Origin: an uncultured Chloroflexia bacterium
Lineage (GTDB): Bacteria > Chloroflexota > Limnocylindria > Limnocylindrales > CSP1-4
NCBI GenBank assembly: GCA_963726055.1
Contig: CAVSAP010000006.1
Location: forward strand, 1,184,884-1,248,883
DNA: 64,000 bases
Reading direction: 5' to 3'
How positions within the stretch are numbered: position 1 is the stretch's first letter; every line of letters begins with the position of its first letter. Below are positions 41,815 through 46,427 of the stretch, one piece after another. The notes under the pieces were generated by a model, which was given only the letters and a program-made list of their open reading frames with translations, made no database searches and had not been told where the DNA came from. The position numbers and the translations under genes are program-made.

Positions 41815-42831
41815 CTACCCGGCCGCTCGGTCGGCCACGAACAGCGTCGCCCCAGACGGCAGGTCGGCGACCGTCGGTGGCGGCACGGCGGCCTCCGCGA
41901 ACATCTTGTCGAAGCCGTCGTGGGTGTACATCCGCGTGCCCTGGAACAGCTCGTCGATCTGGATCCCCCAGAGCAGCTCGGCGTGGAGGTTCTGGGATTC
42001 CTCGAGCGTCGCGGGCAGGCACCACTCGAACACGACGAGGCGGCCGCCTGGTCGAACGGCCCTCCAGGCGGCCCGGAGCGAGGCGACAGGATCTGGCAGT
42101 TCGTGGAGGGCATCCTGCATGTAGACGAGGTCGAACTGCTCCGAGAACGGCATCGTCGGGATCTCGCGGGCCTCGATGCGGATGCGGCTCTCGAGCCCGG
42201 CGTCCGTCACGTGGCGCATCGCCCGGGCGACGGAGTCCGGCTCGAACTCGACACCAACGAGCTCGCTGGCCGGAAAGCGGGTGGCAACCGCGATCAGCCA
42301 CTTCCCGCCGCCGCAGGCGACATCGAGGACGCGGGCGCCCGACGCGAGGCGGGCCGCGAGGTCGGGCAGGACCGCGAGCCCCTCCTGGAAGAACACGGCG
42401 ATGTCCTGGACGGTGACGGCTTCGATCGCGCGGTGGAAGCGCGGCGGGCGCTCATGGATCGGCCGGCCGGTCTTGAAGAAGGCGGCCAGCTCCGCATAGT
42501 CCAGGCTCGAGACGACTGCGGCGACGAACTGTCCGCCGAGATACTCCGGGCGGGACTCGTCCAGCAGCACGGATGACGACGCCTCGTCCATCCGGACCCG
42601 GGTCCCGTCGTGCTCGATGAGCTCGCTGGCGTGGCTTGCCCGGACCCATGCGTCGACCGGTTCGGCGGCGCAGCCGGCGGCCGAAGCGAGTTCGGCCGGG
42701 GTGATGCCCGCGGCTCCGGCCGCGCGAATGAGCTCGAACAGGCCGAGCTGGAGGCCGAGGTAGATCACCCAGCTTCGATAGAAGCCACCGAGACTCTGGG
42801 CGAGATCGTCGAACCTGTCTTCGTGCGGCAT
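41815..42831 (-). CDS. SAM-dependent methyltransferase with N-terminal winged helix
   Basis: LGLF...T..ELA, VLDVACGGG, DALHEL.DP, RPGG. Confidence 0.88.
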   Translation of the reverse strand: MPHEDRFDDLAQSLGGFYRSWVIYLGLQLGLFELIRAAGAAGITPAELASAAGCAAEPVDAWVRASHASELIEHDGTRVRMDEASSSVLLDESRPEYLGGQFVAAVVSSLDYAELAAFFKTGRPIHERPPRFHRAIEAVTVQDIAVFFQEGLAVLPDLAARLASGARVLDVACGGGKWLIAVATRFPASELVGVEFEPDSVARAMRHVTDAGLESRIRIEAREIPTMPFSEQFDLVYMQDALHELPDPVASLRAAWRAVRPGGRLVVFEWCLPATLEESQNLHAELLWGIQIDELFQGTRMYTHDGFDKMFAEAAVPPPTVADLPSGATLFVADRAAG

Positions 42832-42970: not shown

Positions 42971-43483
42971 TTACCGCGGGAAGTGTCGCCGCGCGGTCGG
43001 GCCGAGGTTTGTATCGTCGGTTCGCGGGGCGTAGCCGAGGTCGGCCTTGGTGCCGTTCTTGAGGGCAGCCATGACCTTTTCGATTTCGCCGCGCGAGCCG
43101 TGGTCGTTCCACGCGGCCGGGATGCCGAGCGATGATGCACCGGCGCCGATCTCGCCGCGCCCGCCGCGATCGAGGTAGGCCGCGGCCGGGACGCCGAGCG
43201 ATGATGCACCGGCGCCGATCTCGCCGCGCCCGCCGCGATCGAGGTAGGCCGCGGGCGCGACACCGAGCGATGATGCACCCGTGCCCATCTCGCCGCGCGA
43301 GCCGCGGTCGAGGAAAGCCGGAGCCGGGACGGGGGCGGCGGGGAAGTCGTTGGCCGGAGCCTCGTTCGTGGAACCGAAGGCGATCACGAGCGAGGCGATG
43401 AGGGCCACCGTCACGACGGCGAGCGCCGCCCAGAACTGGCCTGTGCCCAGGGACTGCTGAGCGGTGCGAGTTGATGCGGACAT
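42971..43483 (-). CDS. Membrane-anchored or secreted small protein with 23-aa tandem repeats
   Basis: AGGAG RBS, one TM helix, repeated DRGGRGEIGAGASSLGVPAAAYL. Confidence 0.7.
   Translation of the reverse strand: MSASTRTAQQSLGTGQFWAALAVVTVALIASLVIAFGSTNEAPANDFPAAPVPAPAFLDRGSRGEMGTGASSLGVAPAAYLDRGGRGEIGAGASSLGVPAAAYLDRGGRGEIGAGASSLGIPAAWNDHGSRGEIEKVMAALKNGTKADLGYAPRTDDTNLGPTARRHFPR
43081..43314. repeat. 69-bp coding tandem repeat (about 3.3 copies)
   Basis: GATGATGCAC recurs at 43131, 43200 and 43269. Confidence 0.9.
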
Positions 43484-43688
43484 CTGGTTCTCCTGTGTCC
43501 GGCCCGGGCCTGATTTGCCAGGTCCCTGTCGGCCGATCTCGATGTCCGCATCCTCGATTTCTGTGATCGCCTTGCCATCGGGCTTATGCCCGACGCGGTC
43601 AGGGCCGGCGCCTCAAAGTCATAAGGAGACGGGCCGACGACTCCTTACGCGCATCGCCCGCGAGCGGCACGGCGATCGGGCACGCGGA

Positions 43689-43717
43689 TGCAACCGAATT
43701 GCGACCGCGTGGTGTTT
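43689..43717 (+). promoter_or_regulatory. Candidate ECF-type promoter of the sigma-ogt operon
   Basis: TGCAACC-N16-GTGTT about 10 nt before the sigma ATG. Confidence 0.5.
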
Positions 43718-43726
43718 CATAGGTCG

Positions 43727-44305
43727 ATGGACGATGCGATCCGCACCGACGATGCCGCCCTTGCCGGCCGACTGGCCGACGATCTCGACGGTACGTTCGA
43801 GGCGCTCGTTCACGCCCATGCCGGCCGGCTCTTCTCGATCGCCCTCCGGGTGATCGGCGACCGGAGCGACGCCGAGGAGGTCGCACAGGACGCGCTCGTC
43901 CGCGCGTACCGGGCGCTCGCTGGCTATGACCCGCAACGGATCCGGGAGATCCGGCTGCGGCCGTGGTTGGCCACGATCGTCCTGAACCTCTGTCGCAATC
44001 GGACCCGTGTCAGGCGGGTGCGTACCGTCGAGCTCGCCTTCGAACCTGCCGCCGAGCCGGCCGTCGATCCGGTCGCCCGGCGGGACGAGAGGGCCGCCTG
44101 GGCATCGCTCCTTGCGACGTTGCCGCCGGCCCAGAGAACAGCCGTCGTGCTCCGTCACGTCGACGGCATGTCGTATGCCCAGATGGCCGAAGCGCTCGGC
44201 CGACCCGAGGGAACACTGAAAGCCCAGGTCCATCGCGGCCTGGGAGCCTTACGTGATGCGTTCGCCGCCGCCGAGCGACGCGAGCGGGAGGAGATGACCG
44301 CATGA
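43727..44305 (+). CDS. ECF sigma-70 factor
   Basis: DAEEVAQDA, WLATIVLN, LP..QR.AVVLRH..GMSY..MAE.L..PEGTLK..VHR. Confidence 0.92.
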   Translation: MDDAIRTDDAALAGRLADDLDGTFEALVHAHAGRLFSIALRVIGDRSDAEEVAQDALVRAYRALAGYDPQRIREIRLRPWLATIVLNLCRNRTRVRRVRTVELAFEPAAEPAVDPVARRDERAAWASLLATLPPAQRTAVVLRHVDGMSYAQMAEALGRPEGTLKAQVHRGLGALRDAFAAAERREREEMTA

Positions 44306-45111
44306 ACCGACCCACGCCGGACCTCGTCGCGATTGAGGCCGCGCTTGCCACACTCGCGGAGCCTGCGCCGCCGAGCCTCGCTCACGGTGCCCTCGTCGCC
44401 GTCGGGCTGGCCGATGACTACGCGCTGATCGAATCGCCGGTCGGGCCGCTCAGGGTTGCCTGGAACGGTCGCGGGGTGTCGGTTGTTGACAGCGATCCGG
44501 ACGACCACGCGTTCGAGGTCCGCTTCCTCGCCCGGACCGGTCGGCGAGCCGAACGGCAGGATGCTCTCCCTCGTGCCCTTGACCAGGCGATCTCGCGACG
44601 ACTCGCCGGTGATCGCCGGGCCCGGATCGAACTGGACCTCCGTGGCAGTTCGGAGTTCGAGCAGGCGGTCTGGCTGAAGGCACTCGAGATCCCCCGCGGC
44701 GAGGTTCGGCCGTACGGCTGGGTCGCGGCCGAGATCGGGCGGCCGAAGGCGGTGCGGGCCGTCGGGACGGCGCTCGGGCACAACCCGGTCCCGCTGATCG
44801 TGCCGTGTCACAGGGTCGTCCGGAGCGATGGAACGATCGGGCAGTATTCGCTCGGCGGGCCGGGCAACAAGCGGACGATCCTGTCCGCCGAAGGTCTCGA
44901 TCCGGACGAGCTCGAACGCCTGGCTCGCGCCCGGGTCCGCTACGTCGGCTCGGACACGACCCGGATCTATTGCCTGCCGACCTGTCACAACGCGAAGCGG
45001 ATCACCCCGGCCCACCGGGTTGAATTCCGCTCGACAGGCGCCTCGGAGTCGGCCGGCTACCGGGCCTGCCGGGAGTGCCGGCCGAGCGCCGCGGCCTACG
45101 TCGCGGCGTAG
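44302..45111 (+). CDS. ogt: Methylated-DNA-protein-cysteine methyltransferase with C-terminal Ada Zn-binding domain
   Basis: IPRGEV..Y, RAVG.A...NP, VPCHRV; C-terminal TT.IYCLPTC...GYRACRECRP. Confidence 0.9.
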   Translation: MNRPTPDLVAIEAALATLAEPAPPSLAHGALVAVGLADDYALIESPVGPLRVAWNGRGVSVVDSDPDDHAFEVRFLARTGRRAERQDALPRALDQAISRRLAGDRRARIELDLRGSSEFEQAVWLKALEIPRGEVRPYGWVAAEIGRPKAVRAVGTALGHNPVPLIVPCHRVVRSDGTIGQYSLGGPGNKRTILSAEGLDPDELERLARARVRYVGSDTTRIYCLPTCHNAKRITPAHRVEFRSTGASESAGYRACRECRPSAAAYVAA

Positions 45112-45118
45112 CACCCAG

Positions 45119-45333
45119 GCGCGGCGCGGCGCGGCGCGGCGCGGTCGGGCGACGTCGCGGCGACGGTGCCGCCAATTACGTGCCAGATACCACCCCGTGT
45201 AGTCATCGTCCGCGGATCGTGCCCGAGTTGTCGCCACCTGCCATCCCGGGTGGTAAACGGCAGCGAGTTGGCCGAAATTCGGACCGCCTGGCAGTCCCGA
45301 ACCGGACGCCTACCACACGGGGTAGTAATTGAC
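45119..45333. repeat. (GCGGC)n tract plus MITE/REP-like element with three 17-bp palindromes
   Basis: TRCCAY-N5-GTRGTM at 45188, 45239 and 45311; imperfect terminal IR CAATTAC..CACCCCGTGT / ACACGGGGTAGTAATTG. Confidence 0.65.
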
Positions 45334-45416
45334 AGGGTGTTGGAGCTCGACCGGCCCCCACCGCCCCGCGCCGCGGCCCCGGACGGACCACCGGAGGACT
45401 CTGTTACACTCGCCGC

Positions 45417-46427
45417 ATGTTGGACCATCCGACTATGCCAACGCGCGCGGTCATGCCGCCCACGAGCTTGATCTGGCTCGGGATCGCCATCCTGTACGTC
45501 GTCTGGGGCTCGACGTACCTGGGCATCCGGATCGCCGTCGAGACCATCCCGCCGTTCCTCCTCGCCGGGGCGAGATTCGGGCTGGCAGGCGTCGTCATCC
45601 TTCTCGTTGCGCTCGTCCGCCGGCGGGGACGGATCCCCTTCCCGACGCGGCGCGAGTTCCTCGACATGACGATCATCGGTGCCGCACTCATGGTCGGCGG
45701 CATGGGCCTCGTCGCCTTCGGCGAGCAGACCATTCCGTCCGGCATCGCGGCTCTCCTCATCGCGATGATGCCGCTGTGGGTCGCGGTCCTGGGCCGGGTC
45801 TTCTTCGGCGAGCGCCTGCCGCGCGTCGCGATCATCGGAGTCGCGATCGGGCTGCTGGGGGTCGGGATCCTCGTCGGGCCATCGGCCTCTCCCGCTGAGA
45901 CCTTCGACCCGGTCGGCATCCTCGCCCTGCTCCTGTCGCCGGTCAGCTGGGCGTGCGGGTCGCTCTACTCCGCTCACCGCGCCCGATTGCCGAAGGACCC
46001 TCTCGTCGCGACGGGCGGCCAGATGCTCGCGGGGGCGGCGATCCTTCTGGTCATGGCCGCGGTCAGTGGCGAGTACGCGGGGTTCAGCATTGAAGCGGTC
46101 TCACCGGAGTCGCTCGCCGCGTTCGTCTACCTGACCGTCGTCGGCAGCCTCATCGCGTTCACCGCCTACGTCTGGCTGCTGAAGGTGGCACCGCTTCCGC
46201 TCATCGCGACATACGCTTACGTCAACCCGATCGTTGCCGTCATCCTCGGCGCGATCATCCTCCAGGAGCCGATCACCCCGCGGACGCTCGTTGCCGGCGC
46301 AGTGATCATCTTCGCGGTGGCCCTGATCATCACGGCTCGTGGCCGGATGATGAGCTCCGCACGAGGGGCGACGTCTCGAGAGCAAGAGCACCGATTGGCA
46401 ATCCAGTCCCCAGACGTCGCCGCGTGA
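45417..46427 (+). CDS. EamA/DMT family transporter
   Basis: YVVWGSTY, PPF..AG.RF, YAYVNP; TACACT 6 nt before ATG. Confidence 0.92.
   Translation: MLDHPTMPTRAVMPPTSLIWLGIAILYVVWGSTYLGIRIAVETIPPFLLAGARFGLAGVVILLVALVRRRGRIPFPTRREFLDMTIIGAALMVGGMGLVAFGEQTIPSGIAALLIAMMPLWVAVLGRVFFGERLPRVAIIGVAIGLLGVGILVGPSASPAETFDPVGILALLLSPVSWACGSLYSAHRARLPKDPLVATGGQMLAGAAILLVMAAVSGEYAGFSIEAVSPESLAAFVYLTVVGSLIAFTAYVWLLKVAPLPLIATYAYVNPIVAVILGAIILQEPITPRTLVAGAVIIFAVALIITARGRMMSSARGATSREQEHRLAIQSPDVAA

Follow-up and report, generated by a model that had tools for sequence, protein, structure and literature searches.

The stretch of DNA analyzed here (the window) comprises 64,000 nucleotides (nt) from an uncultured Chloroflexota bacterium of the order Limnocylindrales (contig CAVSAP010000006.1) and carries on its forward strand two overlapping open reading frames (ORFs), at 43688–44305 (205 amino acids, aa) and 44302–45111 (269 aa). 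The first encodes an extracytoplasmic function (ECF) sigma factor and the second a soluble DNA repair protein, referred to below as Ogt-Ada, in which an N-terminal extension is followed by an Ogt alkyltransferase and a C-terminal Ada-type zinc domain. The two frames share the four bases ATGA (44302–44305), a stop/start overlap indicative of translational coupling. This arrangement, an ECF sigma gene ATGA-coupled to an Ogt with a C-terminal Ada zinc domain, had been read from the sequence in an original prediction, and the ORFs, the overlap, and the Pfam matches agree with it. Of the 77 related Chloroflexota loci that have the sigma gene, 71 retain this 4-nt overlap, which is also present in the Streptomyces and Nonomuraea copies. 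We consider the pair here as a candidate sigma/anti-sigma module, with the repair protein as the putative inhibitor.

In the 205-aa ORF, Pfam places Sigma70_r2 at residues 40–109 (E 3.9e-14) and Sigma70_r4_2 at residues 138–187 (E 6.2e-16), and the NCBIfam model sigma70-ECF (TIGR02937; cut-off 42.9 bits) matches with 75 bits. With regions 2 and 4 only and a length of about 190 aa, the protein is an ECF (group 4) sigma factor; it is 43–45% identical to the Nonomuraea and Streptomyces sigma factors of the same module (43% for Streptomyces). The ECF-like promoter that had been predicted ahead of the sigma gene is found there on the same strand, with a −35 element TGCAACC (43689–43695) and a −10 element GTGTT (43712–43716) separated by a 16-nt spacer and lying 10 nt before an ATGGA start. 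The ORF is open from an ATG at 43688; this first ATG is overlapped by the −35 word, and the first 13 codons of the long frame overlap the promoter. Because an ATGGA start 3' of the −10 word is conserved in 77 related loci, at a distance of mostly 7–11 nt (10 nt in the window), the sigma gene most likely begins at 43727 (ATGGAC) and extends to 44305, giving a protein of 192 aa. The operon transcript is predicted to have almost no leader.

The promoter recurs at the related loci. A search pattern of the form (A/G)TGCAAC(C/G)-N15/16-G(T/G/C)GTT, run on 78 sequences (the 77 related loci and the window), matched upstream of the sigma gene in 76, with a spacer of 15 nt in 74 of these matches and of 16 nt in 2; the two sequences outside the pattern carry the variant −10 words TTGTT or CTGTT. 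In Streptomyces and Nonomuraea, GCAACC-N15/16-GTGTT is followed about 9 nt on by the sigma start (ATGGAC; GTG in Nonomuraea), and the Rubrobacter copy has TGAAAC-N16-GTGTT. A conserved promoter in front of the sigma gene fits autoregulation. Across the 3.73-Mb genome, the exact pattern has one match, the operon's own site. Since null scans of the same pattern on reversed and complement-only strands also returned one match, this uniqueness alone is weak evidence for a promoter, and conservation across loci is the stronger sequence evidence. When the genome was scanned with a position weight matrix, the operon's site ranked first at 25.7 bits, followed by the next real match at 22.4 bits, with the best null match at 20.1 bits.

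The 269-aa Ogt-Ada protein comprises the N-terminal extension (residues 1–36; 44302–44409), a two-domain O6-alkylguanine-DNA alkyltransferase fold (44410–44895), and an Ada-type zinc domain (residues 214–261; 44941–45084), all on the forward strand. Pfam assigns DNA_binding_1/Ogt (PF01035) to residues 118–198 (E 1.2e-30) and Ada_Zn_binding (PF02805) to residues 214–261 (E 2.3e-8; 34.3 bits, cut-off 23; profile positions 18–64 of 65), and the NCBIfam ogt model (TIGR00589) scores 93.9 bits against a cut-off of 46.4. An AlphaFold model of the monomer, built from 63 homologs, reached a mean predicted local distance difference test score (pLDDT) of 91.6 and a predicted template modeling score of 0.83. 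With Foldseek, 160–170 columns of its body aligned, each time with a probability of 1.00, to alkyltransferase structures that include E. coli Ada-C (1sfe), OGT of M. tuberculosis, and AGT of humans; 4bhb is among the matched entries. The C-terminal part matched methylated N-Ada (1u8b, 1wpk, and 1zgw; probability 0.99–1.00, E 0.04–0.15).

The acceptor residues of both repair domains are intact. The PCHRV motif occupies residues 168–172, with the acceptor Cys169 encoded at 44806–44808, and this motif, the helix-turn-helix of the C-domain, and the fold of the N-domain identify the protein as an Ogt/MGMT alkyltransferase; P168, C169, H170, R171, and V173 are invariant in 63 sequences. The zinc domain, a putative methyl acceptor, has both the C-x3-C ... 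C-x2-C ligands and the N-Ada fold. Its four Cys residues (C224, C228, C256, and C259) are invariant in the 63 sequences and in 22 distant relatives, and in the alignment Cys224 (codon 44971–44973) takes the place of the first C-x3-C cysteine. A Pfam scan of the 269-aa protein found no AraC helix-turn-helix (HTH_18, HTH_AraC), and the Pfam layout agrees with the earlier description of a domain order reversed relative to E. coli Ada.

In the monomer model, the N-terminal extension forms two helices (residues 8–17 and 24–33; pLDDT 69–74). It contains no Cys or His. P23, G35, and L36 are invariant, and L18, A22, L26, L31, A37, and D38 show a conservation of 90% or more. A profile of the extension matched nothing in Pfam, nor any sequence in the PDB (best E 0.05, to an unrelated chain), and its reading as a known domain was rejected. 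We predicted the complex of the 192-aa sigma factor with Ogt-Ada, using a 63-row alignment for each protein with the rows paired by locus. The complex scored 0.83 (0.83, 0.82, and 0.83 in individual runs), whereas the highest score among three controls was 0.01; at least 98% of contacts are common to the runs, and the pLDDT of the partner is 88 or higher. Of 157 solved complexes, 116 attain the pass mark applied to this score, as do 2 of 215 mismatched pairs; these figures apply here only approximately, since our own alignments were used.

All confident contacts on the Ogt-Ada side lie within residues 3–36, and the conserved residues L18, A22, P23, L26, L31, G35, and L36 are all among them. 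On the sigma side, the predicted interface is formed from residues 21–62 (region 2) and 121–183 (region 4). The model thus supports the earlier suggestion that sigma is bound through the N terminus of the repair protein and marks the extension as a predicted sigma-binding (anti-sigma) segment. Because the extension profile lacks a PDB match, the passing score is not the sequence echo of a solved complex. In solved sigma/anti-sigma complexes, one short segment lying on both regions denotes an inhibited, compact sigma rather than the extended, core-bound form.

The two genes are found together at every scanned Chloroflexota locus for which the upstream sequence is available. The 80 loci obtained from a genome scan, almost all with Chloroflexota or Limnocylindrales in their titles, include 77 in which a sigma homolog immediately precedes the Ogt gene on the same strand; the contigs of the remaining three break off less than 135 nt before that gene. 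The pair is also present in Rubrobacter, Streptomyces, and Nonomuraea records of the plasmid collection, with a differing neighborhood in each: in Rubrobacter radiotolerans the sigma and methyltransferase genes overlap, Nonomuraea gerenzanensis has the ATGA overlap and a short extension, and Streptomyces sp. NBC_00503 has the order TetR, SARP, sigma, "Ada metal-binding domain-containing protein", second Ogt. Co-occurrence of sigma and Ogt-Ada, on which the original prediction would stand or fall, therefore holds in all 77 informative Chloroflexota loci and in these three Actinomycetota records. Single-frame sigma-Ogt ORFs also occur (P0180, P0214, P0234, P0266, and P0269; loci L018 and L048), and P0200 joins an Ogt to EamA. 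The joined sigma-Ogt ORFs may be real fusions, but a single-nucleotide error within the ATGA overlap would give the same result, and we did not use them as evidence of fusion.

More distant relatives carry other N termini on the same repair body. A profile search of a 50%-identity representative protein library, followed by a Pfam scan of 35 longer matches, identified seven proteins of about 300 aa in which an N-terminal zf-HC2 domain (PF13490), at or above cut-off, precedes Ogt and Ada_Zn. In 13 relatives of this zf-HC2 type, C4, H30, C34, C37, the PCHR motif, and the four Ada Cys residues are invariant. A recognized anti-sigma zinc finger thus occupies the N terminus in these relatives, in further support of the anti-sigma position that had been proposed for this end of the protein. 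The extension of the window protein aligns to the segment just C-terminal to the motif of this zinc-containing anti-sigma (ZAS) finger.

These relatives were used to seed a metagenome scan, which provides a natural control. The scan gave 80 loci, 19 of them uninformative. An upstream sigma gene was counted if it lay within 300 nt on the same strand, and sigma-positive loci were counted as informative too, which slightly favors the three sigma-positive classes. Among Ogt proteins with Ada_Zn, sigma is upstream in 36 of 36 informative loci (18 with the short extension, 6 with ZAS, and 12 with a third N terminus of ~70 aa). The same holds for both of the loci cut at a contig end (2/2) and for all 12 loci encoding an Ogt with extension or ZAS that lacks Ada_Zn (12/12), and for none of the 11 plain Ogt loci (0/11). 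In total, sigma lies upstream in 50 of 50 loci with an extension, ZAS, or Ada_Zn, versus 0 of 11 for plain Ogt.

The third sigma-coupled Ogt-Ada class (loci L111, L114–L116, L118, L119, L124–L126, L129, L132, and L138) has an N terminus of ~60–90 aa (L..YF.PEA....L.RR.L..), and its N-domain is left unaligned by the profile of the window protein. The upstream motif of this class differs as well (TTCCACCC ... CGTATA); sigma is upstream in all 12 of its informative loci.

The domains, the intact acceptor residues, the coupling, the conservation of pair and promoter in two phyla, and the predicted interface were all computed here, and on balance they incline us, by a modest degree, toward a sigma/anti-sigma module of two genes, with a cytoplasmic suicide DNA-alkylation repair protein as the anti-sigma factor and with sigma set free, as we propose, when that protein is alkylated. 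In such a module, the 36-residue, two-helix extension would wedge between sigma regions 2 and 4 and keep sigma inactive. The Ogt domain and the Ada-type Cys4 zinc domain would each take over an alkyl group from damaged DNA in an irreversible reaction, and the alkylated Ogt-Ada would let go of sigma, either because the protein is destabilized or degraded or because its methylated zinc domain binds DNA more tightly. Free sigma would then transcribe its own nearly leaderless operon from TGCAACC-N16-GTGTT; the ATGA coupling would yield new repair protein and sigma at 1:1, and unalkylated Ogt-Ada would build up and close the loop.

Within this scheme, inhibitory binding, alkylation as the releasing signal, and the route of release are steps that we infer. 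Alkylated alkyltransferases are inactivated and destabilized, and methylated N-Ada binds DNA more tightly. It is because of these fates, and because the acceptor Cys residues of both domains are strictly conserved in all classes, that we propose release by alkylation.

A broader version of the proposal, to which we give slightly less than even weight, is that modules of this kind may act as stoichiometric lesion counters. Each alkyl group taken from DNA would use up one anti-sigma factor and free one sigma factor, and transcription would track lesions repaired rather than the concentration of a ligand. This design would have at least three N-terminal solutions (the two-helix extension, ZAS, and the third form of ~70 aa), would be the regulator that has been lacking for ECF122 and ECF203 (published groups described below), and would span at least Chloroflexota and Actinomycetota.

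The alternative that survives best keeps Ogt-Ada as an anti-sigma factor and changes the signal: thiol-reactive electrophiles or oxidants would act at the Cys4 zinc site or at Cys169, as in RsrA, or the protein would simply turn over constitutively, with repair as the output and not the sensor. Such a signal would suit relatives that join a ZAS zinc finger to the same Ogt-Ada body, the invariance of both metal/thiol sites, and a predicted interface that avoids the catalytic domains. With no Cys or His in the extension, however, any thiol sensing would have to reside in the repair domains, which are known chemically as acceptors of alkyl groups from DNA, and the full DNA-binding Ogt fold is retained. 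We regard this explanation as unlikely.

Rather less probable again is an extension that serves as a non-inhibitory tether between the repair enzyme and sigma or RNA polymerase, either as an Ada-like co-activator, in which the methylated zinc domain would add DNA affinity at the promoter, or to deliver repair to transcribed DNA. The predicted binding is silent on the sign of its effect, and E. coli Ada offers a precedent for activation, which it achieves by contacting sigma70 and the alpha subunit, its methylated zinc domain gaining DNA affinity. Yet the 34-residue segment touches regions 2 and 4 together, a contact that needs the compact form of sigma, and the zf-HC2 domain found in relatives belongs to a family known from inhibitors. 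Finally, that the repair gene is merely a co-transcribed target of sigma and that the two proteins do not interact appears very improbable: the published descriptions of ECF122 and ECF203 report no anti-sigma factor and a TetR gene lies near the Streptomyces copy, but the complex prediction supports binding, the N-terminal extension or ZAS tracks an upstream sigma exactly in the metagenome control, and no TetR gene is present among the neighbors of the window pair or beside the Rubrobacter copy.

Whichever signal acts on it, the module may control little beyond itself, judging from the promoter scans. The original prediction had envisaged an adaptive response run by an ECF sigma factor. No site was seen at alkA-type genes in the promoter scan, and none lies near the AdaA-AlkA gene of this genome. 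The idea of an ECF-run adaptive response is weakened accordingly: the only strong genomic site is that of the operon itself, and a canonical Ada is also encoded. The latter is a 738-aa ORF combining Ada_Zn_binding (106.7 bits), an AraC-type helix-turn-helix (HTH_18, HTH_AraC), AlkA_N, and HhH-GPD, that is, a canonical AdaA-AlkA fusion; it lies at ~685 kb on contig C6 (locus L081, 787–3003, + strand), with the Ada domain starting at residue 239 and an ambiguous start codon.

A second Ogt is encoded at ~326.7 kb on contig C5 in two frames (locus L084, 1439–2035 and 1477–1797, both on the − strand). Its N-domain is in one ORF and its PCHRV-containing C-domain in the other, which indicates a frameshifted gene or an assembly indel. 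The second-best promoter match, at C3:101375 (+) (locus L085, ~1876–1915), reads ACGCAACC-N15-GTGTT. An EamA-family ORF begins 72 nt further on and shares 32% identity with the EamA gene following Ogt-Ada. This EamA paralog (L085, 1976–2920 and 2643–3005) looks similarly split. We did not count the C3 site as a sigma target, since its 22.4 bits barely exceed the best null match.

Several observations weigh against an alkylation-released anti-sigma factor. The extension has no recognizable anti-sigma domain: it consists of two helices only and lacks a His/Cys motif, whereas a class I anti-sigma domain has about 80–90 aa and four helices, and in the ZAS subset an H-x3-C-x2-C motif, as against 36 aa and two helices here. 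Its hhalign alignment to the segment following ZAS in relatives is weak (probability 26%, E 7e-4, 28 columns). The passing complex score could partly reflect a fold-level memory of solved sigma/anti-sigma complexes, and with the predicted contacts confined to the extension, the model offers no route by which alkylation of Cys169 or Cys224 would lead to sigma release. Moreover, the 80 Chloroflexota loci come from one class and are not independent samples, and their synteny partly reflects descent. The exact-pattern and weight-matrix scans yielded no convincing further target site in the genome, and with the canonical Ada-Zn, AraC, and AlkA combination and the second Ogt, an adaptive response can be explained without the module.

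Beyond the pair itself, Pfam identifies a methyltransferase, an EamA transporter, and a GMC oxidoreductase as its neighbors in the window. Among the 80 Chloroflexota loci, EamA is downstream on the same strand in 76, the divergent methyltransferase is present in 64, and the GMC oxidoreductase in 39. The EamA-family gene (45417–46427, + strand) may belong to the operon as a third gene, though in no lineage but this one. It starts 305 nt past the Ogt-Ada stop in the window, compared with matches that begin ~40–110 nt past the stop in most relatives. EamA is linked in just 1 of the 80 metagenome loci, however, which rules it out as a core member; the conserved core is therefore the two-gene pair. 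No terminators or sigma-70 promoters were detected in a scan of 43300–45600. A run of GGCGC repeats (45113–45145) lies immediately 3' of the Ogt-Ada stop.

On the other side of the pair, the divergent gene at 41815–42831 (− strand) encodes a SAM-dependent methyltransferase with an O-methyltransferase dimerization domain, upstream of the pair at the 64 loci counted above. Two sequence elements, GGATTGTCGCAT (at the methyltransferase start codon) and GGTACCGTA, are common to many of loci L010–L080 and sit between this gene and the sigma promoter. A 170-aa ORF at 42971–43483 (− strand) has an N-terminal hydrophobic helix and three tandem units of ~25 aa (YLDRGGRGEIGAGASSLG); it has no Pfam match and is present in 2 of the 80 related loci.

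The presence of the pair stands as originally predicted, but the pairing of an ECF sigma factor with an Ogt (with Ada_Zn in some cases) has already been published as groups ECF122 and ECF203, a point that the prediction missed; the published descriptions do not present the Ogt as an anti-sigma factor. According to the group descriptions of Casas-Pastor et al. (2021, PMC7826278), ECF122 is 100% actinobacterial, with "no putative AS factors", a 6-O-methylguanine DNA methyltransferase at position +1, and the promoter motif CTCAC/CGTCTAC. For ECF203, also 100% actinobacterial, the same descriptions place an O6-methylguanine methyltransferase at +1, count Ada_Zn_binding 1.22 times per ECF, and record TetR and MFS genes nearby but no conserved promoter motif, and the main text of that paper states that the group "lacks any obvious regulator". 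A 2022 review (PMC8999054) gives ECF122 an "unknown mechanism" and lists ECF203 as possibly controlled by TetR. The ECF/Ogt pairing is thus known; no paper naming an Ogt as an anti-sigma factor was found in the literature searched.

The co-encoded repair protein therefore represents a testable regulator candidate for two ECF groups published without an anti-sigma factor, and cultured carriers that are not pathogens exist in Streptomyces, Nonomuraea, and Rubrobacter. If the proposal is true, repair would be switched on only once the repair protein is consumed, and the module would be a second, independent bacterial coupling of repair-protein self-alkylation to expression, in which inhibition is relieved where Ada activates. 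It would also be the first anti-sigma factor in the literature searched to have a DNA repair enzyme as its sensor domain. As a compact, orthogonal set of sigma factor, anti-sigma factor, and promoter, it could serve as a DNA-alkylation reporter.

Compared with the group descriptions, the window pair resembles both ECF122 and ECF203 in having a methyltransferase at +1, together with Ada_Zn as in ECF203, and the Streptomyces locus shows the described ECF203 layout of TetR, sigma, Ada_Zn protein, and Ogt. The likeness is one of layout and description, and the window is from Chloroflexota in contrast to two groups that are entirely actinobacterial. Unlike ECF203 as described, the window pair has a conserved promoter and a predicted sigma-binding extension, and no TetR/MFS context is present in the window. 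The motif of ECF122 (CTCAC/CGTCTAC) differs from that of the window (TGCAAC/GTGTT).

With respect to known inhibitors, the extension can be compared with very short anti-sigma segments. Class II (CnrY type) and class III (RsbN type) anti-sigma factors bind both sigma domains through a very short helical segment, as predicted here; they are membrane proteins with no enzymatic domain, whereas the window protein is soluble and carries one, and a PDB profile search detected no sequence similarity between them. The zinc-containing class I factors (ZAS, zf-HC2), which include RsrA, RslA, and ChrR, share with Ogt-Ada a cytoplasmic protein encoded directly after the ECF sigma gene and, as predicted here, contacts to regions 2 and 4. 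Distant relatives of Ogt-Ada carry zf-HC2 itself, with an invariant C...H-x3-C-x2-C. The extension of the window protein differs from this class in its two helices, its lack of Cys and His, and its lack of a Pfam match, and the domain attached to it is a DNA repair alkyltransferase, for which the literature searched holds no anti-sigma counterpart.

The repair domains themselves find their closest parallel in E. coli Ada, which likewise joins a Cys4 zinc domain to an Ogt-type C-domain with PCHRV. The window protein has these domains in the reverse order and lacks the AraC helix-turn-helix. In the proposed module, DNA specificity would instead be supplied by a separate ECF sigma factor, and irreversible self-alkylation would be tied to transcription of the protein's own gene, as in Ada, through relief of inhibition and not through activation.

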